The translations under genes were made by a program, and so were the position numbers. Of a stretch of DNA of 64,000 nt, positions 9,804 through 53,101 are shown in pieces (the first letter of the stretch is position 1; every line of letters starts with the position of its first letter). The stretch lies in contig RKRR01000149.1 in NCBI GenBank assembly GCA_007571305.1, forward strand, positions 4,631-68,630, given 5' to 3'. The stretch is from Candidatus Poribacteria bacterium (GTDB lineage: Bacteria; Poribacteria; WGA-4E; WGA-3G). The notes beneath the pieces are model-generated. The model saw only the letters and a program-made list of their open reading frames with translations. It was not told where the DNA came from and did not search any database.

Positions 9804-9885
9804 GGATTTTATTCCTCTCTGTAGTTTTCGCCTATTTTAGCACAAGGACATCAGAAGATCAAGACCTAATTATATTAAAAAACGC

Positions 9886-9913
9886 TTGAATACCCTCAGA
9901 ATTTCGGTATAAT
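9886..9913 (+). promoter_or_regulatory. candidate sigma70 promoter for the helicase-nuclease pair
   Basis: TTGAAT (9886-9891), 16-nt spacer, TATAAT (9908-9913), about 50 nt upstream of the first ATG of the helicase gene. Confidence 0.4.
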
Positions 9914-9965
9914 AGAGGCATTCGTAATTAGTGGAAAACTCCAATTTAAAGCGTTGAGCAGTATT

Positions 9966-11390: not shown

Positions 11391-11449
11391 TGGGTTTCAA
11401 TGGTAAGCACAACCAATGGACGCACTGGACGGGAAGGTAGAATTAAAAA

Positions 11450-25056: not shown

Positions 25057-25176
25057 GGACTCACGCAATTTTGACCATAAGATGTTTTGTGAGAGGGAGA
25101 AACCGCAAAAAACACAGATGTTCTTGGGGCACAACCTAACAGGTTATGCTATAAAAGAGCAGCACACGTAAGTCCT
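25057..25176 (+). repeat. intergenic repeat, family A copy 3
   Basis: ggactcacgcaattttgaccat...cacgtaagtcct (10-bp imperfect terminal inverted repeat). Hairpin core at 25129-25152. Confidence 0.75.
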
Positions 25177-25252
25177 ATTGAAATTAAAAATAAAACCCAT
25201 CCGCGAGTCCGTAACGAAGTGGAAAGCGGATTTCAGGAAGGTAAAATTAAAA

Positions 25253-28200
25253 ATGGCAACCAAACCCCTCAAAAATTTTTCGGCGAAGTTTGGAAACCAA
25301 AACTTGCTCTTAAAAAGTTTAATCGGTGTGAGTGGGCTGATGTTCCTACTCCTGGGTGCCTGTATCTTCTACATTGTACAGATAGATATGCATGATCGGA
25401 CACGATACAGTGTCAAAAACTTCACTCCACAAGGTGAAGTGCCACAACGGGTAGATTTTTCGATTACGTTCTCGGAGATGGTTATAGATAAATCACAGGT
25501 CGGAACCGAAGTTCCAGCAGAGGCACTTCGGTTTACCCCAGCGGTCCAAGGCACTGCCCGCTGGATTGCACGCGATAGAGTCGATTTCTTTTTAGATGCA
25601 CCTTTAGCACCCTCCGCACAATATACCGTTCAACTCACACCAAAACTCAACCCATCTGAAACATTTCAACTCACCGGACAAAAAGAGTTTAAATTTGCTA
25701 CCGATCCCTTCGCGGTGCAGCAAGCATGGATGGAATTTACCCCTGATGATGCCCATGAACACACAACAGGTTTGGGCACGATAGTATTCAACTATCCCGT
25801 GACCATTGTTGATTTAAAGGCACATCTCTCTATCAAACTGGATGACAAAACAGAAATTCCATATCAAATTGAAACCCACACAGTAATGGCGAGGAGGGTA
25901 AGATTCGAGACGGAACGTATAAAACGCGGCACTGCAGACCAAAAGATAAAGATTAAGATTGAAAAAGGGTTCAAATGTACAGGCGGGAAAATCGGTGTAG
26001 AAAAAGCAAGTATTATAGAAGTAATACTCCAAGGGCGAGGAACACTTGGCGTAACATATTCGAACGTTAGGAATAGTGGTGGCACCCCTTATATCTCGGT
26101 CACTTTCAGTGCTCCGGTGCTCAGTGACGCTATTGAGCCGTATATAGAGCTCACACCAACGGTAGCATATCAGGTGAGTTCTAACTATCGAAACGTGAAT
26201 ATCCACGGCAACTTCAAGCGAGGCACTAACTACACGTTGAAGATTCTCCAAGGTCTAACAACTCGGAACGGTGCCGTCTTAAAACAAGATTACATGAATC
26301 ACCTAAGAATTCCGAACATCCCACCTCAACTTCGGTTCCTCGGAGACGGTTTCTTCCTCGCGAGAAAGGGACAACTGAACTTAGGTCTCGCAACAATTAA
26401 CGTTAAAGGCGTGAAACTCAATATCGAAAAAGTTTTCGCGAACAATCTTATCTATGCATCGAAATTAGACCGATGGAGTCGCTCGAGCAGAAACTTAGGC
26501 AAATTTATTCAGGCAGAGGAACTTGATATCTCCTCTCAATTGAACGAAGAAGTAACAACCCCTATCTCCTTGGAAGAATACCTATCAGACGAACATGTCG
26601 GTATCTTCAAAGTTGTGGCACAAAACACACAGAGGCGTTGGGATACTGCATATCAATGGGTGCTTATCACAGATTTGGGTATTAGTGCCAAATGGACAGG
26701 AGACAACCTATACGTTTGGGTGAAATCGCTCGCTACTGGCTCGCCGGTTCCACGCGCGCGCGTCAAACTTATCAGCGATAACAACCAAACACTGCTCGAC
26801 GGAACAACTAACTGGGCAGGATATGCCGAGTTCACAGATGTTACGCAGAAGACAGAAGACTTCACACCCTTTATGATTACCGTCTCGAAACGGGACGACC
26901 TTGCTTTCATTCAACTCAATCGGCACAGAATTGGGACAGCAGATTTCAACATTGCTGGCTCTGCCTACCTGCAAAAAGGTTATGAGGCGTTTCTCTACAC
27001 GAGCAGAGGCGTTTATCGTCCCGGTGAAACCGTCCAACTTGCTGGAATTGTTCGAGGACCAAAGCAGGTAACCCCTCAACCGCTCCCTGCTCGGATTGAA
27101 GTGCTCTCCCCGAATGGCAGAATCATGCGAGAGTTAAGACTACAAACAAACAAAAACGGTGCCTGCGATGTGCAAATTCTCATTCCTGACTACGCCCTGA
27201 CTGGCAATTATATTGCTAAGATGCGGATCGCTGACCGGGTCGTTGGAAGAGTCCAATTTCAGGTTGAAGAATTTATGCCCGATCGGATGAAAGTTGCTGT
27301 AACAGCCGATAAATCTACTTACAAACTTGGAGAGGAACTTGGGATTGAGGTGTCCGCTACCAATCTATTCGGTCCTCCAGCAGTAGGTCGCAAGGTGGAA
27401 GTTTTCTGTGAATTGGAAGCAACTCCACTTGTAAAGAAGGATACAGCACTCAACGCAGGCGCGACACAATGGGATTCGTTTGTCTTTGGAAACGATCGCT
27501 CCAATTTTGAAAAACAGAGAATCGGACTGGGAGAAGCCAAAACCAACACAGAGGGCAAGGCGTACTATCAATTCACGGTTCCTGAAACACTGAAAGCACC
27601 TTCTCTACTAAACGGCAGCCTGACAGCGACCGTCAGCGAAGCCGGTGGCAGATCCGTCACCGCTTCCCACCGAGTCGTGATCCATCCGTACTCACACTAT
27701 GTTGGGCTCCGACGAACAACAACAGCAGCCGTAATTAACCAACCGCTTCGATTCGACTACATTGCTGTTAACGATGCAATGACAATTGCATCGGGAAGAG
27801 ACCTAAAACTAAGCCTCTACAAAGTCCGCTGGAACACGATACTTCGTCAGAACAGTGCGGGGCGTTACGAGTATATCTCCGAGCCTCAAACAACAGAAGT
27901 GGAAACCGTATCATTAACTTCGGCAGAGACAGTGCAGACGGTGACCTTAACACCGTCAGATTATGGTGAATATCGCGTTCGTCTTGAGGACATCGTATCA
28001 ACAGCGACTGTAGAACTCAGATTTTATGTAGGTGGACGGAAAAATATCCCAGTTTCTATGAAACATCCGACTCGACTGGAACTGACGCTTAATAAGCCTG
28101 CTTACCGTCCGGGTCAAACAGCAGAACTATATATTAAGGCACCGTTCCCGGGCAAACTTCTGCTGACTGTCGAACGGGAAAAGGTGTTGAGTTACCGGAC

Positions 28201-30943
28201 GATAATAATGAAAACCAACACGACAACCTTATCAATCCCAGTCCGGTCCGCCTATAGACCAAATGTATATCTCTCTGCCACACTGGTCCGCGCTATCCCA
28301 ATGGAAGGGCCTATGACTAACAATAAGTCGCCTCTCCCGGCGCGCGCGTTTGGAGTAATTCCATTAAAGATAGATGAAACACGGAGGCGGCTTTCAATAG
28401 AGATGTCGCTTCATCAGACAAACGATGCCGGGGATACGCAGAAGATTCCACTTACCAGTCAGGGAAGGAACATAGAGTCTGCAGAAGTTTCTCAGTCTGA
28501 AGGTAGTGAAGTGACAGTCCTACCGAATAACGAAGTGACGATAGCGTTCCGAGTCCACGGTAGACGTTCTTGGCAAAAATATAATGTTTGTATCGCAGCT
28601 GTTGATGAAGGGATCCTGGCGTTAACCCACTTCAAAACACCCAATCCATACGACTATTTCTATCGACAGCGCGGGCTTAAGACGCGCTCCTATGATCTGT
28701 ACGGGGGGATCCTTCCTGAAATCGCAAATGTCACCGACAGTTCAAGTACAGGGGGTGATGCGCCCACAACACGGCAGGCGGAACGGCGCAAACGATTGAG
28801 TACAGGTAGCATCCGGCGAGTAAAACCGATTTCACTCTGGTCGGGATTCGTGGAAACCGATGGAAACGGTCGCGGTACTGTTCAATTCAAGATTCCACAG
28901 TTCAATGGGACATTGCGGTTAATGGCAGTCGCATTTGCAGGTGGAGATTACGGGGGCACGGAAGCGTATCTGACCGTCCGAGAACCTATTGTCTTAACGC
29001 CGACATTCCCACGATTCCTTGCAGGTGGTGATAAAGTTCGCGTCCCTGTTACTCTTTTTAACGGCACAGAGGAGGAAGGGGTATTTAAGGTCGAATTGCA
29101 AGCATCAGGCGACGTACGACTCCTTTCAGCAAGCGAGGTCAACCCGCTCCAAGCGTCACCTCAGGAGGATTCGGGGAGTCCTTTACAAACCTTAGAAACT
29201 GAGAACAAAGTAGACAAACTCACCGTAGCCAAGAGGGTTAACGTAGGCGCAGAAGCACAAGTCTTTTTTGAGATTCTTGTTCAGGATGCAATAGGGAAAG
29301 CCACCTTCAATCTTTCCGCGCACGGTAATACCCAAACAACACAACAGGAGGTAGAAATCCCAATGCGTTCCGTCGCACCGCCTATCACGAAAACAGGACA
29401 GGGAGTAGTGCGCGCGGGTGAACCTGTTGATTTCATTTTTCCGTCGAATTTAATACCCAATTCGTCAGAGTTTAATCTCACGTTATCGCCGTTCCCGAGT
29501 ATCAGGTTTGCGGATAGCCTCCGTTATCTTATACGTTACCCACACGGCTGTCTGGAACAAACAACGAGCAGGGTTTTCCCTTTGCTCTATTTTAGCGACT
29601 TGGCGAGAAGCGTCGAACCGATGCTGGCAGCAGAAGACTCGGTGGACTATTATATTACGTCAGGTATCACGAAAATTGAAAGTATGTTGCAGTCAGAGGA
29701 TCGTTTTGCTTACTGGCCCGGCGGCTATTACGTGAGCCCATGGAGCAGTATCTATGCGTCTCACTTCCTCGTCGAGGCGCGAAAGGCAGGCTACGAGGTA
29801 GCCGACCGAGTCTACGATGCAATGTTGAGAGGTTTAAAAGCACAGGCGAAATTCTCGCCAAATAAGGGAGACGAAAATGAAGCAAAAGCGATAAGAGATA
29901 AGTTTTCATTAGCAACCTATGCCGCCTATGTTTTAGCCGCTGCGGGACACCCCGATCGAGGAACGATGAACTATCTGAAAAACAGGGGCTTGAGCGGACT
30001 CAACCATTACAGCCATTTCCAACTCGCGGGAGCGTTCGCTCTCAGCGGCGAACTGGAAACCGCTCTATCAATACTACCAGTGTCAATATCGCCCAATTTT
30101 AATAAGGGTAACGGACAACGCGAGACAGGTGGAACATTCGATACTCCCATTCGAGCCCAAGCCATTATGTTAGATGTTCTTGCTGAAGTTAACAAAAACC
30201 ATCCATCAATCCCGATGCTCGTTCAAAATTTAAGTGAGGCAGCATCTGAAGGGAACCGATGGGCAACAACCCAAGAAAATGCCTTTGCATTTCTGGCACT
30301 CGGCAAGATCCTGAAGAAACAGATGGATAGAAACTACACCGGTATCCTGAGGCTCAACGGTGAACATTTCGCTGACTTCGACGCAACGGAGACTCGTTAC
30401 GCCGATAAAGCATGGGATGGGGCGCGGGTCCAGCTCTCTGTCAAAGGTGAAGGAAGTTGCTACTACTATTGGAGCGCGTTTGGCATCCAACGCGATTCCT
30501 TCATAGAAGAATACGAACGCGAACTACAAGTGCGCAGACGCTATTTTAACAAAGAGGGTGAAGAACGTACGGACACCTTCGTACACGGGGAACTCCTCAT
30601 CGCTGAGGTAAACGTCAAAGCCCTCACTGCCAATCTCGAAAACGTTGTCGTCGTCGATATGTTACCTACAGGATTCGAAATTGAGAACCCACGGTTAGAA
30701 TCCCGAGAAGGTATTCCATGGTTGAAAGCACGGGGTTTCAAACCGGATTATATTGATATTCGCGACGACAGGTTCATCTTCTTCGGCACGTTCCCACGCC
30801 AGCGCGAACGTAAATTTTATTATACGCTACGGGCTGTCACACAAGGCGAATTTACCTTACCGCCTATTGTCGCTGAGGCGATGTACGATACAACAAAATC
30901 TGCTGTAACGGGTAGCAGGCGTATTGCAGTGGTGACAGAATGA
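25253..30943 (+). CDS. bacterial alpha-2-macroglobulin family lipoprotein (YfhM-like) with intact thioester
   Basis: About 1896 aa. Lipobox-like LLLGAC. Thioester motif GCLEQ at 29546-29560 (YPHGCLEQTTSRVFPLLYF). I chose ATG 25253 because it follows ggaaggtaaaattaaaa; the listed TTG start at 25178 abuts the family A repeat. Confidence 0.9.
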   Translation: MATKPLKNFSAKFGNQNLLLKSLIGVSGLMFLLLGACIFYIVQIDMHDRTRYSVKNFTPQGEVPQRVDFSITFSEMVIDKSQVGTEVPAEALRFTPAVQGTARWIARDRVDFFLDAPLAPSAQYTVQLTPKLNPSETFQLTGQKEFKFATDPFAVQQAWMEFTPDDAHEHTTGLGTIVFNYPVTIVDLKAHLSIKLDDKTEIPYQIETHTVMARRVRFETERIKRGTADQKIKIKIEKGFKCTGGKIGVEKASIIEVILQGRGTLGVTYSNVRNSGGTPYISVTFSAPVLSDAIEPYIELTPTVAYQVSSNYRNVNIHGNFKRGTNYTLKILQGLTTRNGAVLKQDYMNHLRIPNIPPQLRFLGDGFFLARKGQLNLGLATINVKGVKLNIEKVFANNLIYASKLDRWSRSSRNLGKFIQAEELDISSQLNEEVTTPISLEEYLSDEHVGIFKVVAQNTQRRWDTAYQWVLITDLGISAKWTGDNLYVWVKSLATGSPVPRARVKLISDNNQTLLDGTTNWAGYAEFTDVTQKTEDFTPFMITVSKRDDLAFIQLNRHRIGTADFNIAGSAYLQKGYEAFLYTSRGVYRPGETVQLAGIVRGPKQVTPQPLPARIEVLSPNGRIMRELRLQTNKNGACDVQILIPDYALTGNYIAKMRIADRVVGRVQFQVEEFMPDRMKVAVTADKSTYKLGEELGIEVSATNLFGPPAVGRKVEVFCELEATPLVKKDTALNAGATQWDSFVFGNDRSNFEKQRIGLGEAKTNTEGKAYYQFTVPETLKAPSLLNGSLTATVSEAGGRSVTASHRVVIHPYSHYVGLRRTTTAAVINQPLRFDYIAVNDAMTIASGRDLKLSLYKVRWNTILRQNSAGRYEYISEPQTTEVETVSLTSAETVQTVTLTPSDYGEYRVRLEDIVSTATVELRFYVGGRKNIPVSMKHPTRLELTLNKPAYRPGQTAELYIKAPFPGKLLLTVEREKVLSYRTIIMKTNTTTLSIPVRSAYRPNVYLSATLVRAIPMEGPMTNNKSPLPARAFGVIPLKIDETRRRLSIEMSLHQTNDAGDTQKIPLTSQGRNIESAEVSQSEGSEVTVLPNNEVTIAFRVHGRRSWQKYNVCIAAVDEGILALTHFKTPNPYDYFYRQRGLKTRSYDLYGGILPEIANVTDSSSTGGDAPTTRQAERRKRLSTGSIRRVKPISLWSGFVETDGNGRGTVQFKIPQFNGTLRLMAVAFAGGDYGGTEAYLTVREPIVLTPTFPRFLAGGDKVRVPVTLFNGTEEEGVFKVELQASGDVRLLSASEVNPLQASPQEDSGSPLQTLETENKVDKLTVAKRVNVGAEAQVFFEILVQDAIGKATFNLSAHGNTQTTQQEVEIPMRSVAPPITKTGQGVVRAGEPVDFIFPSNLIPNSSEFNLTLSPFPSIRFADSLRYLIRYPHGCLEQTTSRVFPLLYFSDLARSVEPMLAAEDSVDYYITSGITKIESMLQSEDRFAYWPGGYYVSPWSSIYASHFLVEARKAGYEVADRVYDAMLRGLKAQAKFSPNKGDENEAKAIRDKFSLATYAAYVLAAAGHPDRGTMNYLKNRGLSGLNHYSHFQLAGAFALSGELETALSILPVSISPNFNKGNGQRETGGTFDTPIRAQAIMLDVLAEVNKNHPSIPMLVQNLSEAASEGNRWATTQENAFAFLALGKILKKQMDRNYTGILRLNGEHFADFDATETRYADKAWDGARVQLSVKGEGSCYYYWSAFGIQRDSFIEEYERELQVRRRYFNKEGEERTDTFVHGELLIAEVNVKALTANLENVVVVDMLPTGFEIENPRLESREGIPWLKARGFKPDYIDIRDDRFIFFGTFPRQRERKFYYTLRAVTQGEFTLPPIVAEAMYDTTKSAVTGSRRIAVVTE

Positions 30944-33504
30944 TGAGAAATGGTTATCGGAAGAATGGTCATCGGTTAAGAGCAATGTTGGTTAAATTAG
31001 TCCCTTCTTTAATTAACACCCGACACCTATTCCCCCGAAGACTGATAATTCTCATGTTACCTTTCTTGTTGATTATCATCCTCTTTGCGCTCTCAAACTG
31101 GTGTTTCCCGCTACCCAAAACACGTCTCCATCCACCGGTATCTCAGATTGTATTGGACAGAAACGGCGAATGGCTTCGAACATTTTTAGCTGACGATGGC
31201 ATGTGGCGATTTCGTCCTCAGTCCCAAGAAGTTTTCGATAAACCAGACAGCCCTTCAACTGAAAATAGACAACGAATAGCCGACAATTACTCCCCGTTCT
31301 TACACCAAGCGATACTCACATCAGAGGACAAATGGTTTTACTATCACTACGGTATCAACCCTGTATCGATTGCAACAGCCTTTTATGACAACTGGAAAGC
31401 GGGTGAAGTAGTGCGTGGTGGTTCAACCATCACTATGCAACTCGCTCGACTGATGGAACCCAAAGCGCGTACCATTCCGAATAAACTGATTGAGATGTTC
31501 CGCGCACTTCAACTTGAACATAATTATTCCAAATCAGAGATTTTAACGTTCTACTTTAACATGCTCCCGTATGGAGGGAATATAGTCGGGACAGCAGCAG
31601 CTTCGAGATTCTACTTCAAGAAACCTCAACATGCGCTTAGTCTTAGTGAAGCCGCACTCCTCGCCGCCATTCCGAACGCCCCAGAACGTTTACGACCTGA
31701 CAGGTTCCCAGAAAACGCGCGAAAGGCACGCAAAAAAGTCCTGAACCGTCTCCTCGCCCGCCGACAAATTTCCGAACAGCAGTGGCAGGAGGCAGTACAA
31801 GAACCGATTCCCCAGAAACGCCATCCACTTCCATTCAAAGCCCCACATCTCTCACGTATGTTGGTGAAACACGCAAAATCGACAACAACAAATGGCAGGA
31901 TATATACGACAATAGACGCGAAGGTTCAGGAGACTGGAGTCCGCATCCTTCGTGAATACTTGGACGCAGAGCGTAAACCCAGTTTGCGCGGGTCTCATAG
32001 CACCAGCACGGGTGCGATTGTCGTCCTGGATACCCAAAGTCGCCACGTCTTAGCAATGGTAGGTTCTCACGACTTTTTCGATCGGCGTGCATTAGGACAG
32101 ATAAATGGAACGCTCGCCCCGCGTTCTCCCGGCTCTGCCCTCAAGCCTTTCGTCTATGCCCTGGCGATGGAAAAGGGCTTGATTACACCAGAGACCTTAT
32201 TATTCGATGTCCCTGTCACCTACGCTGGATATGAACCAGTGAACTATGATGGGAAATATAAGGGTTATGTCACCGCTCGCCAAGCCCTCGCAAGTTCTCT
32301 CAACATCCCTGCTGTTAATCTTAATGCCAGCTTAAAAAACACCACACTGCACGCCTTCCTCAAACAGGCTGGTATCTCTACACTCGCACCCGCTCAAAAG
32401 TACGGACTGTCCATGGTTCTCGGTGGATGCGAAGTGAATCTGCTTGAATTAACAACACTTTACGCTGGACTGGCAAATATGGGAGAATTTGGATCTTATC
32501 AATTGACACTCTCTGGACCTATTTTTCGCCAGACTCCTCCGGACCTGGCGGAAGGATCGCGAGCAGGAGCTCGCTCCTACAACAAAAGTAGGGCACAACG
32601 TCTACTCCGAAAAGAGACAAGCTTCATCATAACTGAGATGCTAACAAACTCACAATTGCCGACCAACACCGTTAAAAACCCAGAAGCCTTTGAAAGGACA
32701 ATGAACCTACCGAAAATTGCGTGGAAGACCGGGACTTCTTATGGGCACAGGGATGCATGGTGCATCGGATATTCACCGAAATTAACAATTGGTGTATGGC
32801 TCGGTAATTTCGATGGGAAAGGTGCTCCGATGTTGAGCGGTACAGATGCCGCAACTCCTATCCTATTCGCGCTCTTCACTGCCTTGACAGGACAGGATAC
32901 ACACCGTTGGTTCACCAACCCAGAGCAACTGAAAACACGACACGTATGTGCCCTGAGTGGTGCGCCAGTTTCATTACACTGTCCGGCCTATAAGGAAGAT
33001 ATGTATATCCCGGGTATCTCGTCTGTCGAGGCCTGCACAATACACAAACGCATCTATATTGACGAAGTAACAGGGCACAGTCTCTGCTCCCATTGTCGGA
33101 ATTTTCCAACAAATGATGCACAAGCACGAATATTTGAAGAGTGGCCCGCCGATGCGGCGACTTGGTTGGCAGAGAACGGCTTTGCTGTGTCTGTCCTACC
33201 GGAGCATAACCCTCTGTGCACCGGAACAATTGCAGGGAACGTTCCGGTCATTTTATCTCCAGCAGCAGATACTATCTATTACATTCGGGCAGGGATACCG
33301 CTGGAAAACCAAAAGATTCGATTGGCTGCCTCGGCTTCAAGTCGGACACAGGATCTGTTTTGGTTTTTGGATGGTGAGTTAATTTTTCAAGGGAACGCGG
33401 GAGAGCAATACTGGCTTACACCTTCCAGAGGGAAACACGTGTTAACTTGTGTGGATGCGGAGGGTCGCTCAGCAACCCGTCCGCTGCATATTTTAAACTA
33501 TTGA
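30940..33504 (+). CDS. pbpC: penicillin-binding protein 1C (bifunctional transglycosylase/transpeptidase)
   Basis: GT51 motifs (EDKWFYYHYGINP, RGGSTITMQLAR). Transpeptidase SxxK (SPGSALKP) and KTGTS. The start ATG overlaps the A2M stop (ATGA at 30940-30943). The A2M-PbpC pairing is a classical arrangement. Confidence 0.85.
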   Translation: MMRNGYRKNGHRLRAMLVKLVPSLINTRHLFPRRLIILMLPFLLIIILFALSNWCFPLPKTRLHPPVSQIVLDRNGEWLRTFLADDGMWRFRPQSQEVFDKPDSPSTENRQRIADNYSPFLHQAILTSEDKWFYYHYGINPVSIATAFYDNWKAGEVVRGGSTITMQLARLMEPKARTIPNKLIEMFRALQLEHNYSKSEILTFYFNMLPYGGNIVGTAAASRFYFKKPQHALSLSEAALLAAIPNAPERLRPDRFPENARKARKKVLNRLLARRQISEQQWQEAVQEPIPQKRHPLPFKAPHLSRMLVKHAKSTTTNGRIYTTIDAKVQETGVRILREYLDAERKPSLRGSHSTSTGAIVVLDTQSRHVLAMVGSHDFFDRRALGQINGTLAPRSPGSALKPFVYALAMEKGLITPETLLFDVPVTYAGYEPVNYDGKYKGYVTARQALASSLNIPAVNLNASLKNTTLHAFLKQAGISTLAPAQKYGLSMVLGGCEVNLLELTTLYAGLANMGEFGSYQLTLSGPIFRQTPPDLAEGSRAGARSYNKSRAQRLLRKETSFIITEMLTNSQLPTNTVKNPEAFERTMNLPKIAWKTGTSYGHRDAWCIGYSPKLTIGVWLGNFDGKGAPMLSGTDAATPILFALFTALTGQDTHRWFTNPEQLKTRHVCALSGAPVSLHCPAYKEDMYIPGISSVEACTIHKRIYIDEVTGHSLCSHCRNFPTNDAQARIFEEWPADAATWLAENGFAVSVLPEHNPLCTGTIAGNVPVILSPAADTIYYIRAGIPLENQKIRLAASASSRTQDLFWFLDGELIFQGNAGEQYWLTPSRGKHVLTCVDAEGRSATRPLHILNY

Positions 33505-33645: not shown

Positions 33646-34452
33646 TTAAAAACGAGAATTGGACTTAAGTCTACCCCATGTTGTTGTGAGTTTACCATCT
33701 GCTTCTACAGCAAGGGTTGCCTCCATACTGGCTTTTACGTCCTCAGCGGTGAAAGCGACACTCCACATCTTAAATTCGTCAATCATACCATTGAAGAAGT
33801 TGGCGTTGCCCTGACTCGCTGCGATGCACATACCTTGAGTACCGAAATCCATGCGGGCATCCCCACCGGCTTCCGTTTCGTTATCAAGCTCCCCGTTAAT
33901 ATACATCCACCCAGTCTTTTTACTCTGGGTCCCGACGAAGTAGTACCATTCCGGTTCAAACGCTTTATAATTCGTGTGTATCGGTAATTCAACGCCCTGC
34001 GTCGCAAAGTAGTACCCGAATAATACTCCACCACGGTTGAACGTAACATGAGGCCGTCCGCCACCTTGCAAACGATAGAGCAGATCAATGCGGCCACCAC
34101 TGTCAATTTTCTCGTCCGGTTTGAACCAAAACTCAATTGTCATCTCTTCCGGTTGATCAATTTTAAGTGGATCGAAGTTAACACTTCCACCATTGAAATG
34201 GAGTGCCTGACCTGCGACACCCTCTACCCATTTCGCGTTCTTTATATCTCCAACAAATCCATTCGGCGACACATCTTCCGCCGTGTTACCTTTACCTTCA
34301 TCAAAAGGTAAGTAGATAAGTAAATCCTTATCTGGATCGACCGCATGAGCGAGGACACAACCCGTCAAAAAGGCTACAGCCATGAAAAGATATGCTAATT
34401 TTTTCATCTTTGATTCGTGTGAAAGCACCACACAGACATGTGCTACCTTCAT
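33646..34452 (-). CDS. secreted LamG/concanavalin-A-like lectin-fold protein with C-terminal KLTTTWG motif
   Basis: LamG-type pattern (...ALHFNGGSVNFD...MTIEFWFKP..., ...WYYFVGTQSKKTGWMYINGEL...). Signal peptide MKKLAYLFMAVAFLTGCVLAHA. The start at 34452 follows GGAGG with a 5-nt spacing; the alternative is 34407. C-terminus ...VEADGKLTTTWGRLKSNSRF. Confidence 0.65.
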   Translation of the reverse strand: MKVAHVCVVLSHESKMKKLAYLFMAVAFLTGCVLAHAVDPDKDLLIYLPFDEGKGNTAEDVSPNGFVGDIKNAKWVEGVAGQALHFNGGSVNFDPLKIDQPEEMTIEFWFKPDEKIDSGGRIDLLYRLQGGGRPHVTFNRGGVLFGYYFATQGVELPIHTNYKAFEPEWYYFVGTQSKKTGWMYINGELDNETEAGGDARMDFGTQGMCIAASQGNANFFNGMIDEFKMWSVAFTAEDVKASMEATLAVEADGKLTTTWGRLKSNSRF

Positions 34453-34528
34453 GCTTCCCTCCAATTTTTTAATAGTCATCAGCAGTTGGAAACCAAGAGA
34501 ATTTCTGGTAACGACTGACTGCTGATTG

Positions 34529-35377
34529 CTATTGCGGGGACTTCAGGTTTCCCCAAGTCGTTGTTAATTTACCGGCAGGTTCAACCGATAAGACCTCTGG
34601 TAGGTAATAGTTAACGATGAATTCACCCATAATCGCCCCCCACGAGACACCCGGATGCGGCACATCACCCACATAGGTCTGTACGAAGATACCAAGGCGC
34701 CCCCCAGTCTCTTCGTTAAATATCACAGCCGGCTCAACCCGTAAATCGTCATCCTTATTTTCAGCCAGCGCGATCTCTACTTCCCACGGCGATTTTTCAT
34801 AATCTTCGGCGTGGAACGGATAAGACGTGTTATATTTCTTCAGACTCGGTATGAGATCTTTGCCCTCCTGTGTTGGAGTCATTTCAACGGGATTGGCTTG
34901 CCAAGCATCCGGACCTCTGCCCTGCCACACGTAAGCTTCTGGAACGTCAATGATATTGGGTAATCCTTCTTGTCCGTTCGTTTCTGAGGGGCCTTCCGAC
35001 GTGTAGAAAGTGTATTCACCCGTACTGAAAACCGTGTTGCCGGCATCAAGGAATTCTTCGAGAATCGAGCCATCAGGCTTTGCATTGGCGATCGGATAAA
35101 TCGTTGAAGGGGTGATACCTGTCAGAATTAACGTATTGCCACCACCTGCTGTGTGTGCCTTGACCCAATCTGCTAATCCCTTAATATCCTTGGGGTCAAA
35201 AGCTGTCAGATTTACCTTATTATCAATAATCTTAATTAAGGCATCAATTTCCTCTTGAGCACCTTTTAGATCTTCACGCGCCCAAGGGTGCGAGTCGGTA
35301 TGAAGCGCAAAATTGAAATTGGCTTCAACCTGAGCAGAAATTAAAACCGTGAAAAAAAGAATAGCCAGTTTTTTCAA
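34529..35377 (-). CDS. secreted protein of unknown function with C-terminal KLTTTWG motif
   Basis: Signal peptide MKKLAILFFTVLISAQVEA. I recognise no domain. C-terminus ...VEPAGKLTTTWGNLKSPQ. Confidence 0.6.
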   Translation of the reverse strand: MKKLAILFFTVLISAQVEANFNFALHTDSHPWAREDLKGAQEEIDALIKIIDNKVNLTAFDPKDIKGLADWVKAHTAGGGNTLILTGITPSTIYPIANAKPDGSILEEFLDAGNTVFSTGEYTFYTSEGPSETNGQEGLPNIIDVPEAYVWQGRGPDAWQANPVEMTPTQEGKDLIPSLKKYNTSYPFHAEDYEKSPWEVEIALAENKDDDLRVEPAVIFNEETGGRLGIFVQTYVGDVPHPGVSWGAIMGEFIVNYYLPEVLSVEPAGKLTTTWGNLKSPQ

Positions 35378-35425
35378 TGTCTTCCTCCCATCTATTGTAG
35401 GCGGGACAGTGGACCTGCCTCACCT

Positions 35426-36100
35426 TTATTTGCTTTTCAATTCACCCCATAGCGTAGCTAATTTGTCTGCAGGTTCAACTGCCGTTGGCGGGATGCCTTC
35501 ACCATTAATTTCAACATATTCATACGCAACAGTTGAATCTCTACCGCCTAAGCCGGGACGCCCCTTATCGTAGGTCTTATCTTCGTTTTCAACCATCAAT
35601 TTTCCATCAATGTAGGTTCTGAAGGTTTCCCCTTCTACTTCAAAGACTATAGTATACGCATCGCCCCCTTTGGTATCTTTTGAATCTGGACGTTTCGGGC
35701 GCGGGCCGCCGGTAATCTCATTTGCCCCACCACCTTGAAACATGAACAGTGAGGTGGTATGTGAGTTGTAACTGATTTCCATGAAATAGAAATCGACTGC
35801 TGGTTCCTGTGTCCGAACAAAAAGATGGAAATAGGGTCCAGCAAGTTTCCGTGCTTTGACTTCCATTCGGTAATCCGTCCAGTTTTCTTCTCCGAAGTAG
35901 ATACCTGAATTCTGCCCGCCGGCAACGGTCAGTTCAAGCATACCATCTTTCACCTTCGCGGTTGCTTGCGGTCCCAGTTCCCAATCCGCAATTTCTTTGT
36001 CACTATCAAACTCATAACGAATCGCCTGTGCGGTGTGCCCAATCAACAGAAAGCCCAAGCAAATGCACACGCACATCCATCGGATATTCAATTTTCTCAT
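35426..36100 (-). CDS. secreted jelly-roll (DUF1080/LamG-like) protein with C-terminal KLATLWG motif
   Basis: Signal peptide ...CLGFLLIGHTAQA. The pattern ...FDSDKEIADWELG...VKDGMLEL...NWTDYRMEVKAR...FHLFVR... is typical of DUF1080-type beta-sandwiches. C-terminus ...VEPADKLATLWGELKSK. Confidence 0.55.
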   Translation of the reverse strand: MRKLNIRWMCVCICLGFLLIGHTAQAIRYEFDSDKEIADWELGPQATAKVKDGMLELTVAGGQNSGIYFGEENWTDYRMEVKARKLAGPYFHLFVRTQEPAVDFYFMEISYNSHTTSLFMFQGGGANEITGGPRPKRPDSKDTKGGDAYTIVFEVEGETFRTYIDGKLMVENEDKTYDKGRPGLGGRDSTVAYEYVEINGEGIPPTAVEPADKLATLWGELKSK

Positions 36101-40723: not shown

Positions 40724-41524
40724 TTATTTATATTCCCGTTTTAGTAAAGCCCAAGTTGTTGCCAATTTTCCAGTCGCATCAACAGCGGCATAACCGGCTA
40801 ACCCATTCTCCATAACATCGTTGAGTTCATCTTCAGAGAGGGCTTCCGTAAAGAAGCCTACCTCGTCAAAGAGTCCTGTTGCAGCAACATTGCCCGGCCG
40901 CGCTCCTATCCAGATGGGCGATTCACTCGTATCCAACGTACCACCGCTCGGTTCCTCCCCATCCAATTTCCCATCAACGAACATTTGAACGTTTTTGCCA
41001 TCATAAATTTTGGCGATATGGTGCCACTTACCATCAGCAACGATGGTTTTGCCATCAATCCGCCCGACGTTGCCTTTGACATGCCACATAAAAACCGGAT
41101 AATGATCTTTGTGGATCCATATATCGAGGTGACGGACATTTTCTGGTTCCGGCCAAACATCCCCATTTCTCCAGACTACGTATTGCCATGAGGCGGCTTC
41201 TAACTGAACCCACGCCACAAATGTATAAGGATCAGAATTAAAAACATCGTCGTGATCGACGCGGACGTAACTATCACCTTTGCCCGAAAATTTCAAAGCA
41301 CCGCCGAATTTACCTTTATTCGTCCATTCAAGCGTGCCCTTGATCTCACCATCATGCCCACTGACAACATCCTTGACAATTTTCCCGCCATTCTCCTCAA
41401 ACAGCCAAGCACTCGCCAAACCGAGTTTCGCCGCATGTACAGAAGTTCCGAATCCGATCATGAGGATTAGCAAACTTACAATCACCGCCAAAACCAGCAT
41501 TCGGTAGACAGTAGACACCTTCAT
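40724..41524 (-). CDS. secreted LamG-fold protein with C-terminal KLATTW motif
   Basis: The ATG at 41524 avoids overlap with the upstream gene and follows GGGAGAT. N-terminal TM/signal segment MLVLAVIVSLLILMIGFG. LamG pattern (ALKFSGKGDSYV..., FTFVAWVQ..., WHHIAKIYDGKNVQMFVDGKL). C-terminus ...VDATGKLATTWALLKREYK. Confidence 0.65.
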   Translation of the reverse strand: MKVSTVYRMLVLAVIVSLLILMIGFGTSVHAAKLGLASAWLFEENGGKIVKDVVSGHDGEIKGTLEWTNKGKFGGALKFSGKGDSYVRVDHDDVFNSDPYTFVAWVQLEAASWQYVVWRNGDVWPEPENVRHLDIWIHKDHYPVFMWHVKGNVGRIDGKTIVADGKWHHIAKIYDGKNVQMFVDGKLDGEEPSGGTLDTSESPIWIGARPGNVAATGLFDEVGFFTEALSEDELNDVMENGLAGYAAVDATGKLATTWALLKREYK

Positions 41525-41537
41525 TCTATTTATCTCC

Positions 41538-42542
41538 CTATACGCGACAATTATCAAGTGCATCCTCGTCCAATTCAACCCCTAACCCTGGTTTATCCGG
41601 AATAGTTGCGTATCCATCAACAAGCGGAATCGTTGAAGGTGTAACAAGGTCGAAGGCGCGCAAAGCATTTAGCGTAATCGCTGGCATAGTTGCATTCGGC
41701 ATCACCGCAGCGAGATGCATAACATAACAGGTCGTAATACCGAGCCCAACAATCTGTATCCAGACTGGAAGATGGGCAGCGTTTGAAATAACCGCCTCCC
41801 GTACAGCATTGGCAGCGCGTGAGTCAGGGTAAGCGATAATAAACGAATCATTCATATTTGCCCGTATTGCTTCGATCGGGTCCGGGTTGCCGAAGTGGAT
41901 GGTTATCGGCATGTCAGTGTGTCGCTTAATCTCTTTGTATCCGACAATATCGGCTTGTGGGATCGGCGTTTCAAACGACTCTATATTGTAATCTTGGAGC
42001 TGACGTACGACTTCAAGGGTGTGTGCCGGGGTCTCAAAAGAGTCATTTGCATCGACGCGGAGTCGATAATCATCTGGCACGACGCTTGCAATTGCTTCCA
42101 CCTGCTCAAGTACTTCAAACCAGGGACGGGCTTTGATTTTGTGGAGCCGATAGCCGAGAGCATAAGCGTGCTGTGCCTCTGCCGCCCATTCCTGGGGGGT
42201 CATGTCAATCGACCAGTAGCCGAATTGCGTTTTGTCATGAACCTTTTCACCTAAGAGTTGATGCACCGGCACACCAAGTGCTTTCCCCATGATGTCGTAA
42301 AAAGCCTGCTGGAGAGGTGTCGGCGCCCAACCATTTATAAATTCAAATGGATTTCTACCGACGTAACGCTCAACGACCTCTGCCGCCTGAAACGCCCCAT
42401 CGCCAATCCCGACAAGTCCTACATCGGTGTGCACCTTGTAGACATAATCAATCTGATAAAGATTGCGACGCGTCATGAGTTCATAAATGCCCTCATGATA
42501 CGGCACCCTCACTTTGATAACGTCTATTTGAGTAATTTTCAT
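41538..42542 (-). CDS. enolase-superfamily enzyme (mandelate racemase/muconate lactonising family)
   Basis: ...GYRLHKIKARP... (KxK), ...RLRVDANDSF... and ...IESFETPIP... form the metal-ligand pattern of MR/MLE proteins. Confidence 0.8.
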   Translation of the reverse strand: MKITQIDVIKVRVPYHEGIYELMTRRNLYQIDYVYKVHTDVGLVGIGDGAFQAAEVVERYVGRNPFEFINGWAPTPLQQAFYDIMGKALGVPVHQLLGEKVHDKTQFGYWSIDMTPQEWAAEAQHAYALGYRLHKIKARPWFEVLEQVEAIASVVPDDYRLRVDANDSFETPAHTLEVVRQLQDYNIESFETPIPQADIVGYKEIKRHTDMPITIHFGNPDPIEAIRANMNDSFIIAYPDSRAANAVREAVISNAAHLPVWIQIVGLGITTCYVMHLAAVMPNATMPAITLNALRAFDLVTPSTIPLVDGYATIPDKPGLGVELDEDALDNCRV

Positions 42543-42716: not shown

Positions 42717-43169
42717 TCACTCATCACGCCGGATCCAACTCACGACATCCTCCGCTTCACCTGTACCGCCCTCAACGCCATCGCTCCCGAAAGAGATAAG
42801 ATCGTATCCGTACCGGTCGTGGTTCCCCGGACGAACATAGACATAAGAATTTCCCCAAGGGTCTTTCGTAATCGGAATTTGAATATAGGGTTCTATCCAA
42901 TTTATTGGTCTTGGTGGTGCTTCAGGCATTTCCCAAAGTGCCTTCAATCCCTGTTCAGTCGACGGATAATCACCGTTATCTTTGGCGTACCTATCAAGAG
43001 CGATACCAAGCGTTTCGATATCCTCGGCGGCTTGTGCCTGCAAGGCACGACCAGCCTGCCCGAGCAATCGAGGTGCCAAAAGGACAGCCGCAATAATCCC
43101 GAGAACGATGACGACAACTAAAATTTGTATTGATGTTAATCCTGCTTGTTTAGAATCGATTGATTTCAC
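42717..43169 (-). CDS. gspG: type II secretion major pseudopilin GspG-like protein
   Basis: Prepilin-type N-terminus KQAG|LTSIQILVVVIVLGIIAAV. GspG core ...ALDRYAKDNGDYPSTEQGLKAL...DPWGNSYVY..PG.....YDLISFGSDG..GG. Confidence 0.8.
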   Translation of the reverse strand: MKSIDSKQAGLTSIQILVVVIVLGIIAAVLLAPRLLGQAGRALQAQAAEDIETLGIALDRYAKDNGDYPSTEQGLKALWEMPEAPPRPINWIEPYIQIPITKDPWGNSYVYVRPGNHDRYGYDLISFGSDGVEGGTGEAEDVVSWIRRDE

Positions 43170-46759: not shown

Positions 46760-47974
46760 TTAGGCATCAAACTGGTGTCGGCTCTGATGACACGCTGTGC
46801 CTTTACCTCTAATCATATCCGCGTGCTGCCACGTATCAACAGTCCCGCAAATAGCATCACTCTCACCGAAACGTTGTTTTAGTTCAGATTTTGTGAACCA
46901 TTCATAACCGTTATTGGCGAGGACATCAAGGTCTAAGTCTCCATCAGAGAAGCCGTAGACTCGACAGATCCCATCTTCCTCTTCAATATCCTCAATATAC
47001 GACATCCAAGAGACATCTAAACCGAGTTGTGTTTGGATGATATCTTGAAGTGAACCGATCCGTGCGCCGATATCCCAACCAACGAGGTTCTCTTCCTCCC
47101 AACCTTCACCTCCTGGCAACTCCCCACGTTCTGTTTCCGTATCGCGGCGGAGCAAGAATCTCGATTCCTGACCTGATGAATCCTCAATAAGCAGACGTGT
47201 CGTTGCAATCGGCTTGTCAAAACAGACAGGAATGAGACGCTTTCCATCGTCACTCAATGCGTCCAATGCGGTGGAATTGTAAGGATAATATCCCGCGGCG
47301 GGAGGCGCGTCTATTGCACAATATTTATTGAAAATCCCGCATCGGTCTTCAGTGGCAGTACCAGGGGGTGCTTCGTGCCAGACGTGCTCGTTGACGACAA
47401 GCAGATCCCCTGCCTTGAGTTCTGGATCAATGAAAGGGGGCAATTGTTCAGGATCAGGACGCGTGAGGTCTAAGATGTGTGCGTCCGGATCAATCACCTG
47501 CGTCAACTTGTGTGATTTCGGAGACACGAGAAAAGGACCGTATTCCGCATCAAAATCAGTCAGTGGGATGATGGCAAATACCCAGTTCATCGATGAACCC
47601 ACAGGTCTCCAACGTTTGTAGTCGCAATGCGCTCTACCTCCTTTATCGCCTGGAGTCCGAAGATACGCAACATAGGCAGTGAGATGTGCGGGTCGATCGA
47701 GTACAGATTCCACGACCCCGATAACCGTCGGATGTTCAGCAATCTCGGTAAGTCCGGGATCGGACAGACGGTTGCCGCTCACCGTATATTTCGCTGGCTC
47801 AGGATATTTAAGCGTCGACGGATAGGCATCGCGTTTTACCTGTTCTTGGACGACACTTCGAAGTTCATCCGCTTCCTTCACGGACAAGGCATTGCGCACG
47901 ATTACGTAGCCATCCTCATGGTAGTCGGCGATCTGCTGCTCGCTGAGGGTTGAGGTTATTGTACTGTCCATCAT
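46760..47974 (-). CDS. PhyH-family dioxygenase with a C-terminal extension of about 130 aa
   Basis: LSEQQIADYHEDGYVIVRNAL..., ...AHCDYKRW... (HxD) and ...LVVNEHVWHEAP.... The C-terminal part (ELPGGEGWEEE...) is only vaguely Nudix-like and lacks the REuxEE box. Confidence 0.6.
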   Translation of the reverse strand: MMDSTITSTLSEQQIADYHEDGYVIVRNALSVKEADELRSVVQEQVKRDAYPSTLKYPEPAKYTVSGNRLSDPGLTEIAEHPTVIGVVESVLDRPAHLTAYVAYLRTPGDKGGRAHCDYKRWRPVGSSMNWVFAIIPLTDFDAEYGPFLVSPKSHKLTQVIDPDAHILDLTRPDPEQLPPFIDPELKAGDLLVVNEHVWHEAPPGTATEDRCGIFNKYCAIDAPPAAGYYPYNSTALDALSDDGKRLIPVCFDKPIATTRLLIEDSSGQESRFLLRRDTETERGELPGGEGWEEENLVGWDIGARIGSLQDIIQTQLGLDVSWMSYIEDIEEEDGICRVYGFSDGDLDLDVLANNGYEWFTKSELKQRFGESDAICGTVDTWQHADMIRGKGTACHQSRHQFDA

Positions 47975-48003
47975 GCAAACTCCTCCACTTTTTACACGAA
48001 GCT

Positions 48004-48555
48004 TTAACTCACAAATTTCTCCAAAATAGGATGATCCAAAACGGATGCGACTTCTGTCCAGGCCTGTTGGCTATTCTCAACTGAAAGGTCTGGGGTGAAT
48101 CCGAAATCAAGATAAACTTTGATCGCTGCCATACGTCCGGTTGACGTACCGAGAAAACAGCATTCGTGGGATTGCTTCAGACGCTCCATCGCTACGGTCA
48201 TCATCGGTTTGGAAAGCCCATGTCCTTGATAGTCAGGATGAATCACGACCCAGTGGATCTGGCCCCACACTTCTCCATCTATATCTTGCCACCATGCCGT
48301 GATTGTGCCTATTTCCTCACCTGTGTCTGTCGTTAGGTAAAAACTTCTATTCTCCATTACTGAAAGATGGTGTTTAAACTCGCGATCAAAAAGTCCGTCG
48401 TCAATGTCAATGTAAGGTTCTGCGGCTTTCAGAATCCGCGTCCAGATATGTCCCTCATTCTGACGATAATTTCGGATTGCAAATCCGTCTGGAATCGGGA
48501 ATTGCGGGATATTCTCCATGTTCTCGCGAATCATTCTGACGCTATAGTTCTTCAT
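48004..48555 (-). CDS. GNAT-family N-acetyltransferase
   Basis: ...IHWVVIHPDYQGHGLSKPMMTVAMERL... is the acetyl-CoA-binding motif A (Q/RxxGxG/A). Confidence 0.8.
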   Translation of the reverse strand: MKNYSVRMIRENMENIPQFPIPDGFAIRNYRQNEGHIWTRILKAAEPYIDIDDGLFDREFKHHLSVMENRSFYLTTDTGEEIGTITAWWQDIDGEVWGQIHWVVIHPDYQGHGLSKPMMTVAMERLKQSHECCFLGTSTGRMAAIKVYLDFGFTPDLSVENSQQAWTEVASVLDHPILEKFVS

Positions 48556-48796
48556 ATTGGGCGTGAGGCTGCGGAAATTGAAGTTCAGAAAATTCGATTT
48601 TCACTTAGCACAATATAACACACGTTAAAAAAAAGGACAAAGGTATTTTGAAAGGAGCGTAAATATTTTGTCACTTGTCTGAATCGTGGATTAGACAGAT
48701 GATGCGGATTTTTAGATATTTGTTATCCGAAATCGATTCGGGATCTGGTGGTTTTCCCAGAGAATTGAAGGGATCCGACTTTTAACACAGAAGGAC

Positions 48797-48825
48797 TTGA
48801 CATTATAAAAAAAATAAGATATACT
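48797..48825 (+). promoter_or_regulatory. near-consensus sigma70 promoter of the two-gene cassette
   Basis: TTGACA (48797-802), exactly 17 nt of A/T-rich spacer, TATACT (48820-25). It lies about 50 nt upstream of the first gene. Confidence 0.6.
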
Positions 48826-48877
48826 TTATATTTGTTAATATTTATTATATCCAGATATGTATCCCAGGGGAGTGTCT

Positions 48878-49804
48878 ATGCTTATTCGTCAGAAGGTTAT
48901 ATTGTCATTAATTGACCAAATGGGTAATCAAAGCCCTAGTGGTAATCACGGAAAGGTCTCTCGTTTACAGTTGGTTAAATGGGCATTTTTGCTTGAAAAC
49001 GAAAGAAAAATGAAAACCTTTTACCAATTCGTCCCCTATCACTATGGACCATTTTCGTTCACACTTTATCATGAATTAGAGGGGCTGATTCGGAACAGTT
49101 ATATTATAGAGTCCCCTAAAGATAGCATTCAACGAAACATTGATATTGCAGTACCTCCAATCACCCCTGTACTTAAAAATGAAATTAATGATTTTTCAAG
49201 AAAGTACCACTCGCTATCAATGGAAGAGTTAATAGATTTTGTATATTCTCGTTATCCATGGTTTACAATTAATGCTAAAAAGTTAGGCAGCCGAAAAGAC
49301 AAGCGCCCTATAGGTGAATGCGCTGTTTATACAGCTGGCTACGAAGGTTTACATATTGATGGGTTTCTGAATATTCTCTTAAAAGCAGGTATTCAGCAAG
49401 TCATTGATGTTCGATGCAATCCAGTCTCAAGGCGTTACGGTTTCCATAAATCCACATTGTCACGGCTATGCAAAGGATTGGAAATCAAATATAGACATGT
49501 GCCCGAAGTGGGCATTCCCTCAGAATCGAGAGCCAACCTTCGCCAACCATCTGATTATATCAAACTTTTCCAAAACTACAAAAAGAAAGTATTAACTGTT
49601 CAACAAGAGGTTATAAAAAGGATATCGAGGTGGGTAGCATCCCAACCATCAGTCTTAGTATGTATGGAGGCAGATCCTCATTGCTGTCACCGTTCTCACC
49701 TTGCAGAGGAAATCAAAAACCTTACGAAACTTGATATCCATCACTTAAGGAAAGATACATGCAAACAGCCTATACCAAAACCAAAATTCTCATTACCGTC
49801 ATGA
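48878..49804 (+). CDS. fusion protein: Panacea/DUF4065 (SocA/GepA)-like N-terminal domain + DUF488 C-terminal domain
   Basis: The ATG at 48878 follows GGGGAG with a 5-nt spacing; the listed ORF starts at 48857. N-terminal half: SRLQLVKWAFLLE...FVPYHYGPFSFTLYHEL...SLSMEELIDFVYSRYPWF. C-terminal half: VYTAGYEGLHIDGFLNILLKAGIQQVIDVRCNPVSRRYGFHK..L...GI.Y.HVPE.G...VLVCMEADPHCCHRSHLA, which is the DUF488 hallmark. Confidence 0.65.
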   Translation: MLIRQKVILSLIDQMGNQSPSGNHGKVSRLQLVKWAFLLENERKMKTFYQFVPYHYGPFSFTLYHELEGLIRNSYIIESPKDSIQRNIDIAVPPITPVLKNEINDFSRKYHSLSMEELIDFVYSRYPWFTINAKKLGSRKDKRPIGECAVYTAGYEGLHIDGFLNILLKAGIQQVIDVRCNPVSRRYGFHKSTLSRLCKGLEIKYRHVPEVGIPSESRANLRQPSDYIKLFQNYKKKVLTVQQEVIKRISRWVASQPSVLVCMEADPHCCHRSHLAEEIKNLTKLDIHHLRKDTCKQPIPKPKFSLPS

Positions 49805-50583: not shown

Positions 50584-50756
50584 TAGGTGCGATTTAGTCT
50601 AAAATTTCTACTAATACGCTAACTGTTGCGAAAACTTGGCATTATCAGAATTTGTGATAGCATGTACCGTGTTTTGGAGCAATTTACTTATGCCTACAGA
50701 AAATAAATATCATTTTTCTAGACAATAAGTAGTTTTCGGATAGGTTAAATTGGAGT

Positions 50757-52991: not shown

Positions 52992-53101
52992 TAACCACTC
53001 CTTATTGGCATACTCTCAATTACTATTTCAATTTTTAAGTACAGTAGCACCCCTCTCATTTAGCCCACAAGTTTATCAGGACTAATAGGCACCTGAACAA
53101 G

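Follow-up and report, generated by a model that had tools for sequence, protein, structure and literature searches.

A short, strictly C-terminal tag on unrelated, predicted exported proteins of Poribacteria and an apparently related tail in other lineages

The 64 kb of DNA analysed here (the window; positions 4,631 to 68,630 of contig RKRR01000149.1 from a Candidatus Poribacteria bacterium) carry four genes, W1 to W4, all on the minus strand, whose products start with a signal peptide and end in nearly the same short peptide, a C-terminal tag that is the subject of this work. W1 (33646..34407) encodes 253 residues from the ATG at 34407 and has a LamG domain between its signal peptide and the tag (LAVEADGKLTTTWGRLKSNSRF plus stop codon, 33646..33714). 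The first-pass annotation had started this gene at an upstream in-frame ATG (34479), which would add 24 residues before the signal peptide and is the less likely start. W2 (34529..35377; 282 residues from a TTG start) has a central domain for which a Pfam search returned no match, and which is α/β and class-I glutamine-amidotransferase-like; its tag is LSVEPAGKLTTTWGNLKSPQ plus stop (34529..34591). W3 (35426..36100; 224 residues) carries PF06439, the 3-keto-disaccharide hydrolase domain formerly known as DUF1080, and ends in TAVEPADKLATLWGELKSK plus stop (35426..35485). W4 (40724..41524; 266 residues from the ATG at 41524) is a second LamG protein and ends in AAVDATGKLATTWALLKREYK plus stop (40724..40789), a variant in which Ala replaces Gly after the Trp. 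Pfam assigned PF13385 (Laminin_G_3) to the open reading frames (ORFs) of W1 (33646-34479) and W4 (40724-41578). The N-termini of W1 to W4 read as signal peptides: MKKLAYLFMAVAFLTGCVLAHA, MKKLAILFFTVLISAQVEA, MRKLNIRWMCVCICLGFLLIGHTAQA and MKVSTVYRMLVLAVIVSLLILMIGFGTSVHA, respectively.

The four tags were called by a regular expression and a shuffle test. A six-frame search of the window for K-L-[AT]-[TL]-x-W-[GA]-x-[LIVM]-K gave exactly four matches (33664-33693, 34541-34570, 35435-35464 and 40739-40768, all on the minus strand), each 2-5 residues upstream of a stop codon, in agreement with the first-pass annotation, which had noticed that the adjacent genes at 33646, 34529 and 35426 share a terminal motif and that a fourth copy lies in 40724..41524. 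The back-translated pattern occurs four times in the window DNA against 0.00 expected from 100 dinucleotide-preserving shuffles. All four tails fit the consensus phi-x-[A/P]-V-[E/D]-[P/A]-x-x-K-L-[A/T]-T-T-W-G-x-[L/I]-K, apart from the Ala of W4, followed by 1-5 polar or basic residues.

Pairwise BLASTP comparisons of W1 to W4 limit the likeness to the last ~17-35 residues (70.6% identity over 17 residues for the tails of W2 and W3), except for a weak similarity between the LamG domains of W1 and W4 (32% over 100 residues). Since the similarity is confined to the tails and the DNA that encodes them differs at synonymous sites, recent duplication is excluded. The mature domains had been described as unrelated, and this stands for W2; it needs correction for the others, as LamG and DUF1080 are both concanavalin-like jelly rolls, so that the α/β fold of W2 is the clearest proof that the tag sits on unrelated bodies.

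The back-translated core of the tag, run against one genome from each of 185,579 species, gave at least 120 stretches of 8 kb each. Of the 120 listed stretches, 109 are labelled Poribacteria, and a single Synechococcus stretch is a chance match; among these stretches the tag is strongly enriched in Poribacteria. All of the 165 motif copies that they contain lie 1-12 residues before a stop codon, and in 81 the distance is exactly three. Their consensus reads phi-[LTF]-[AP]-V-[ED]-[PA]-x-x-K-L-[AT]-T-T-W-G-x-[LI]-K and is followed by 1-5 (rarely up to 12) variable polar or basic residues. A Val at position -5 is found in 158 of 162 copies, although it was absent from the search pattern. The last residues of the poribacterial tails are mostly R, S, Q, K and N, with R the commonest.

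The terminal position was confirmed with less constrained models. A hidden Markov model (HMM) of the tail, run against the six-frame ORFs of the listed loci, gave 160 matches of at least 25 bits, all of them within 12 residues of the stop, and its sole internal match is the chance one in the Synechococcus locus. Even the five-residue core W[GAS]x[LIVM][KR] is concentrated at the ORF ends of these loci, with 179 copies in the last 15 residues; just 22 copies are internal, in 420,451 residues. An exhaustive HMMER profile search of 1.84 billion cluster representatives (50% identity; E<=1e-3) produced 440 matches; of the best 150, about 145 end no more than 12 residues from the C-terminus, and the others comprise read-through extensions, a junk repeat ORF and a fragment that has two tails. 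Those matches that carry source names belong to Candidatus Poribacteria. A tail-only query against an index of 5.8 billion proteins, by way of a word prefilter, returned 37 short fragment ORFs, which served as seeds and not as a census. The possibility, raised in the first-pass annotation, that the motif might also occur internally thus finds no support in the locus scans, the tail HMM, the profile search or the core count. Among the very few non-terminal cases is a 100-residue ORF (P0123) with two tail motifs, ...GKLTATWGLIKRTQ... and ...VEPVDKLTITWGATE..., which probably arose by decay or fusion of two neighbouring tagged genes.

BLAST sorts the bodies of 135 tagged proteins into 19 clusters, and the tag is therefore present on at least 19 unrelated protein families. 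LamG proteins are the largest group (~80 members). In the other families Pfam recognises DUF1080, CBM9-like, F5/8 type C (discoidin), ankyrin plus reprolysin-like metallopeptidase, DUF3108-like and Kelch propeller domains; there are also lamin-tail-domain proteins of 968-1681 residues, a TolB-like PD40 propeller family with the variant tail SLTTTWGEVK, and several families without a Pfam match. The 19 body clusters, together with the BLASTP comparisons and the codon usage described below, speak against duplication of whole genes, which the first-pass annotation had named as the other possible source of the similarity. In databases the poribacterial tagged proteins are annotated solely as "hypothetical protein" or "LamG domain-containing protein". 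A crude heuristic finds a signal peptide in 120 of 142 complete tagged ORFs, and the failures are mostly fragments or hydrophobic N-termini without Lys or Arg. The N-terminus of W1 (34342-34407) contains a lipobox-like L-T-G-C, so that this protein might be a lipoprotein; a lipobox-like motif is found in just 6 of 142 tagged proteins elsewhere, and lipidation is therefore not a general feature of tagged proteins.

Selection on the tail acts on the peptide. At the invariant V, K, L, T, T, G and K positions all synonymous codons are in use (four for Val, six for Leu, four for Thr and four for Gly), a scrambling that points to the peptide rather than to a DNA or RNA element; a conserved 3'-end element of either kind is ruled out by this codon table. 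The W2 family has 81 homologues, few with source names and these all Candidatus Poribacteria, and the tag is present in 40 of 40 aligned homologues, down to 34% identity. In both the W2 and LamG families every aligned homologue has the tail, to 31-34% identity, so that its conservation equals that of the folded body.

The structural models place the tail outside that body. The AlphaFold2 model of W2 has an α/β fold (mean predicted local distance difference test, pLDDT, 88.2), whose best Foldseek matches are weak ones to CTP synthase glutaminase domains (TM score 0.40), and its residues 267-282 fall below pLDDT 50. In the W1 model the LamG jelly roll has a mean pLDDT of 87.1 and residues 236-253 fall below 50. 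The tail is drawn as a low-confidence helix in W2 and as coil in W1, in both cases directly after a confident passenger domain, and it is predicted to be a disordered extension outside the fold. High conservation, a strictly terminal position and predicted disorder of the isolated segment are together what one would expect of a motif that another protein reads. The consensus KLTTTWGKLKS has a mean Eisenberg hydrophobicity of -0.13 and a helical hydrophobic moment of 0.34.

One locus pointed to a similar tail elsewhere. In L097:363-7993 (65% GC, SRP200020_co5_420), tandem TolB-like PD40 proteins end in ...(L/V)MWGWLKQLxxGxRxx, a third tail variant, and the array adjoins two Kelch ORFs (one apparently disrupted) with the canonical KLTTTWGAMK tail. 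These variant tails prompted a test of the motif [ST]WG[KR]IK[AST][LM]YR, a tail of proteins from metagenome-assembled genomes, which a metagenome scan then confirmed, with at least 120 stretches (L121-L240). In the listed stretches 122 of 123 matches to [ST]WGxIK[AST][LMI]YR lie within five residues of the stop codon, and most end exactly at YR-stop. This tail, here called wide-type, is usually preceded by P-[TV]-P-[VTA]-E-x. Its carriers have lamin-tail, NHL, CHRD-like or PD40-like domains, many have no known domain, and 75 of 90 have a signal peptide. The contigs are mostly high in GC (median 0.65) and come from soil, sediment and groundwater metagenomes; the named members belong to Candidatus Cloacimonadota and Candidatus Eisenbacteria and are all annotated "hypothetical protein". 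One example of the tail is that of L202, which ends ...ADECPVPVEPTSWGRIKALYR-stop, and in many copies a Cys is found ~10 residues before the Trp (C-[PA]-[TV]-P...). No Pfam or NCBIfam model matched the wide-type tail, and a search of Pfam, NCBIfam and the literature found no description of it.

The poribacterial and wide-type tails have much in common: both lie at the extreme C-terminus of signal-peptide proteins with diverse bodies, with a P/A-V-E-P-like stretch, the core [ST]-W-G-x-[IL]-K and a short basic end. They differ in that the poribacterial form has ~4 extra residues (x-G-K-L) between V-E-P and T-W-G, prefers Leu over Ile, and finishes in 1-5 variable polar or basic residues where the wide type has a fixed A-L-Y-R. 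Aligned with hhalign, the two profiles match over the last 12 columns (TTWGxLKxxxR against xSWGRIKALYR) with 94.5% probability and P=8e-8. The sampled loci carry either one form or the other, with 165 against 0 copies in the poribacterial ones and 0 against 146 in the others, and the wide-type expression fits none of the 165 listed poribacterial tails or the four of the window. Because of the 12-column profile match and the shared context homology is likely, though not certain, and the tail of Poribacteria seems to be one lineage's own version within a wider family of C-terminal tags that is apparently undescribed. Two points go beyond the first-pass annotation: the tag is typical of the whole phylum Poribacteria, and it is apparently related to the far more widespread ...WGxIKxLYR tail.

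Models of known families do not cover the tag. With Pfam-A and NCBIfam release 20, including tail-only queries at E<=1, no model matched the tail. The models for the C-terminal domain (CTD) of type IX secretion system (T9SS) cargo (TIGR04183, PF18962 and TIGR04131), PEP-CTERM, GlyGly-CTERM and LPXTG found no match in the tagged proteins tested, at E<=0.1/0.01 for Pfam and E<=1 for NCBIfam; these were the four window proteins, ten representatives of other families for Pfam, and six of those representatives plus two tail-only peptides for NCBIfam. A profile search of the PDB with the tail gave chance matches only (E>=0.7), and literature searches, by motif string or by sorting signals of Poribacteria, turned up no description. 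A weak NCBIfam match to "TafC fimbrial protein", the tip subunit of a haloarchaeal Tat-dependent pilus, was attributed to LamG similarity and does not cover the tail.

We also looked for a partner by clustering the neighbours of tagged genes, using ORFs of at least 150 residues in 120 poribacterial loci and of at least 120 residues in 120 wide-type loci. The recurrent neighbours in the poribacterial loci are Gfo/Idh/MocA oxidoreductases, FG-GAP/ASPIC proteins, extracytoplasmic function (ECF) sigma factors, WD40 proteins and TPR proteins. The only uncharacterised membrane protein that recurs is a polytopic one of ~650 residues with DUF6785 and DUF6784, near tagged genes in 5 of 120 loci (L050, L052, L066, L112 and L115) and, in L050, directly after two of them on the same strand; five loci are too few for it to count as a partner. 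A GT39-like membrane protein and a histidine kinase were set aside, as they recur in one wide-type sub-lineage only. With no partner recurring in the neighbourhoods or present in the window, the machinery, if it exists, would be encoded elsewhere in the genome.

In the window the tagged genes are flanked by housekeeping or unrelated genes: α2-macroglobulin/PBP1C, DUF423, EF-G, aldehyde dehydrogenase and an enolase-superfamily protein. Immediately upstream of the tagged cluster, on the opposite strand, lies a classic A2M/PbpC pair, formed by a gene for a 1923-residue bacterial α2-macroglobulin with bMG3/5/6/10 and bait-region domains (25172-30943, +) and one for a PBP1C-type penicillin-binding protein (30940-33504, +), whose start overlaps the stop of the former. 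A GspG-type pseudopilin of the type II secretion system (T2SS) is encoded at 42717-43169 (-), 1.1 kb from W4 with the enolase-superfamily gene in between; no other T2SS genes were seen in the window, and one pseudopilin gene on its own does not speak for a connection with the tag. Further away, an XPB/RAD25-like helicase with a damage-recognition domain (9879-11390, +) adjoins a DUF790 protein (11447-12685, +), in an arrangement that looks like the archaeal XPB-Bax1 helicase-nuclease pair. Two proteins with PhyH (phytanoyl-CoA dioxygenase) domains, one of them fused to HEAT repeats, are encoded at 6712-8826 (-) and 46760-48070 (-); Kamke et al. 2014 (PMC3909097) treated PhyH genes as a notable trait of the genomes of Poribacteria, with which a poribacterial origin of the window agrees. 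Finally, a stretch at ~48000-52000 has a GC content of 0.38-0.40 compared with ~0.48 elsewhere, with a DUF488 protein and a 752-residue N6 DNA methylase (50757-53015), and may be a horizontally acquired restriction-modification island.

Taken together, the tag is real, strictly C-terminal and modular, it is carried by signal-peptide-bearing and hence predicted exported proteins, it is under selection at the peptide level, and its occurrence is structured by lineage. We consider it probable that this tail is a lineage-typical, modular localisation tag that is read by a separate partner protein. Tagged proteins would cross the inner membrane through Sec by means of their N-terminal signal peptide, after which the folded passenger domain would present a flexible C-terminal peptide of ~20 residues. 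A dedicated envelope component would then bind the tag and either move the protein across the outer membrane or hold it at the cell surface, and cleavage of the tag may take place close to its conserved [A/P]-V-[E/D]-[P/A]. Binding would probably take place as an extended β-strand, given the alternation in L-x-T-x-W and a strand hydrophobic moment that equals or exceeds the helical one (0.36 against 0.34 for the poribacterial core, 0.45 against 0.34 for a longer poribacterial consensus, and 0.61 against 0.37 for the wide type). We would only tentatively take the further step of proposing that both tails mark an undescribed sorting or surface-attachment system of several phyla, with candidate machinery of its own apart from T9SS, exosortase, rhombosortase and sortase; its tag would be the smallest address label of the outer envelope so far, with ~12-20 residues, no transmembrane (TM) segment and no folded domain.

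Several points weigh against a localisation tag. To our knowledge, every established outer-membrane export signal is far larger than a linear peptide of 20 residues. The signal-peptide calls come from a crude heuristic, and "phylum-restricted" is to be read as strong enrichment among the listed stretches rather than as a complete census. No receptor, protease or transpeptidase candidate recurs beside tagged genes in the 120 plus 120 clustered neighbourhoods. Also, the obvious candidate machinery may be absent, since the poribacterial single-cell genomes gave TIGR04183-like matches and, according to the same study, lack the T9SS structural genes, with SprA/Sov, PorV, PorU and PorK-N as the core set (Kamke et al. 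2014, PMC3909097). As for the sorting tag proposed in the first-pass annotation, its shape, position and modularity hold; a sorting function is what we infer as the best explanation, with no partner protease, transpeptidase or outer-membrane protein in the gene neighbourhoods.

The same peptide could have other uses. It might serve purely for docking, in the manner of a mini-dockerin or a donor strand, inserting as a β-strand into a scaffold, S-layer, pilus-like or outer-membrane protein and so gathering lectin-like or carbohydrate-active modules at the surface with no role in transport. Chaperone-free assembly by strand donation is documented for archaeal filaments (PMC12337348), and most tagged proteins consist of one binding module or of a domain linked to sugars (LamG, CBM9, discoidin, DUF1080, Kelch and PD40); KLTTTW has alternating L, T and W, with the strand moments just given, and the tail is predicted to be disordered alone, as donor strands are. 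However, a pure docking peptide would not need to be at the extreme C-terminus in 165 of 165 copies, no acceptor or scaffold gene recurs near the tagged genes, and the tail, as read from its sequence, has none of the Ca-binding repeats of true dockerins, so that we regard docking alone as rather unlikely. Recognition by a periplasmic protease or chaperone, by which the tail would govern turnover or folding as a degradation or quality-control tag and not location, fits a disordered and conserved C-terminal peptide, and C-terminal peptides are the classical ligands of PDZ-domain proteases such as DegS, DegP and Prc. PDZ domains, however, need the last residues and a free carboxylate, and here the last 1-5 (up to 12) residues vary and the conserved block lies upstream; a degradation tag on more than 19 unrelated families, including the largest paralogue expansions, is also hard to explain, and this role seems improbable.

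A role as an amphipathic anchor lying in the plane of the membrane, as for the C-terminus of PBP5, in which Trp and Leu with flanking Lys would tether the protein to the membrane surface, is more doubtful still. The tail does have an interfacial Trp between two invariant Lys, with L, W and L at i, i+4 and i+7, and AlphaFold2 draws a low-confidence helix for W2, but it draws a coil for W1. Moreover, the tail has just three hydrophobic residues, and its mean hydrophobicity and helical moment fall below the +0.38 and 0.43 of a PBP5-type anchor sequence. The near-invariant T-T, G and V-E-P are also unusual for lipid-binding helices, in which it is the physical character and not the precise sequence that is conserved. 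That there is no tag at all, and that the likeness comes from duplicated gene ends, a conserved 3' DNA or RNA element or chance, can be practically discounted: three of the four window genes are adjacent on one strand, but the chance expectation is 0.00, the bodies are unrelated, the synonymous sites are scrambled, and the motif turns up again in over 100 genomes and in 440 clusters formed at 50% identity.

The tag marks an apparently large share of the exported lectin-like or carbohydrate-related proteins of Poribacteria, dominant uncultured symbionts of sponges, and it is through just such proteins that contact with host matrix and glycans would be expected. It would offer a one-line rule to predict the surface or secreted proteome of Poribacteria and, via the related tail, of Cloacimonadota, Eisenbacteria and similar lineages. 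The tag is likewise a clean input for phylogenetic profiling toward the partner machinery and a candidate minimal peptide for surface display. Since its members are annotated merely as hypothetical or LamG proteins, a profile model would bring an immediate gain in annotation.

It was through shared C-terminal tails that sortase, exosortase/PEP-CTERM, rhombosortase and T9SS cargo recognition were discovered, and the tag has to be compared with these systems. As a feature it is very well supported and apparently unannotated, and its architecture fits no known family of sorting signals; the first-pass annotation was right to describe a short tail without a TM helix, at the extreme C-terminus and modular on unrelated signal-peptide proteins, and to separate it from PEP-CTERM, LPXTG, GlyGly-CTERM and the T9SS CTD, as none of these models covers it. 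Like the signals of PEP-CTERM/exosortase, LPXTG/sortase, GlyGly-CTERM/rhombosortase, MYXO-CTERM and PGF-CTERM, it is a short, lineage-typical C-terminal signature on unrelated exported proteins; its V-E-P resembles P-E-P, it has basic residues at the very end, and PEP-CTERM-type systems were likewise found via a shared tail (PMC1569441). These three-part signals, however, need a TM helix between the motif and the basic cluster, and the 13 residues after V-E-P are polar in the tag. This lack of a hydrophobic segment excludes three-part signals of the sortase or exosortase type and argues against a PBP5-like anchor as well. The β-signal of outer-membrane proteins, read by the β-barrel assembly machinery (BAM), is also a short C-terminal motif resembling a β-strand with alternating hydrophobic residues, but it has an aromatic last residue and belongs to a β-barrel, whereas the tagged bodies are soluble and their termini polar or basic and variable in length. 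Type I dockerins, in turn, are small C-terminal modules that attach diverse carbohydrate-active proteins to a common partner (cohesin); they measure ~70 residues and have duplicated Ca-binding loops, and the tag shows neither such repeats nor a match to a Pfam dockerin model.

The T9SS CTD is the closest functional analogy. Both are C-terminal signals on Sec-exported cargo with very diverse passengers, abundant in their lineages, with a Lys near the end and tolerance of extra residues, and a Sec signal peptide, as in T9SS cargo, is present in four of the four window proteins. In T9SS itself the last ~22 residues can hold targeting information (HBP35), the last strand has a conserved Lys, and C-terminal extensions are tolerated (PMC11285876). 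T9SS has also been reported for Cloacimonadota, which carry the wide-type tail too. The features that define the CTD at the domain level are nevertheless lacking, for it is a folded, Ig-like β-sandwich of 70-100 residues, and the tag has ~20 residues that are modelled as disordered. Our best reading, by analogy, is that the tag works by a logic like that of the T9SS CTD and PEP-CTERM signals, as a member of neither family.

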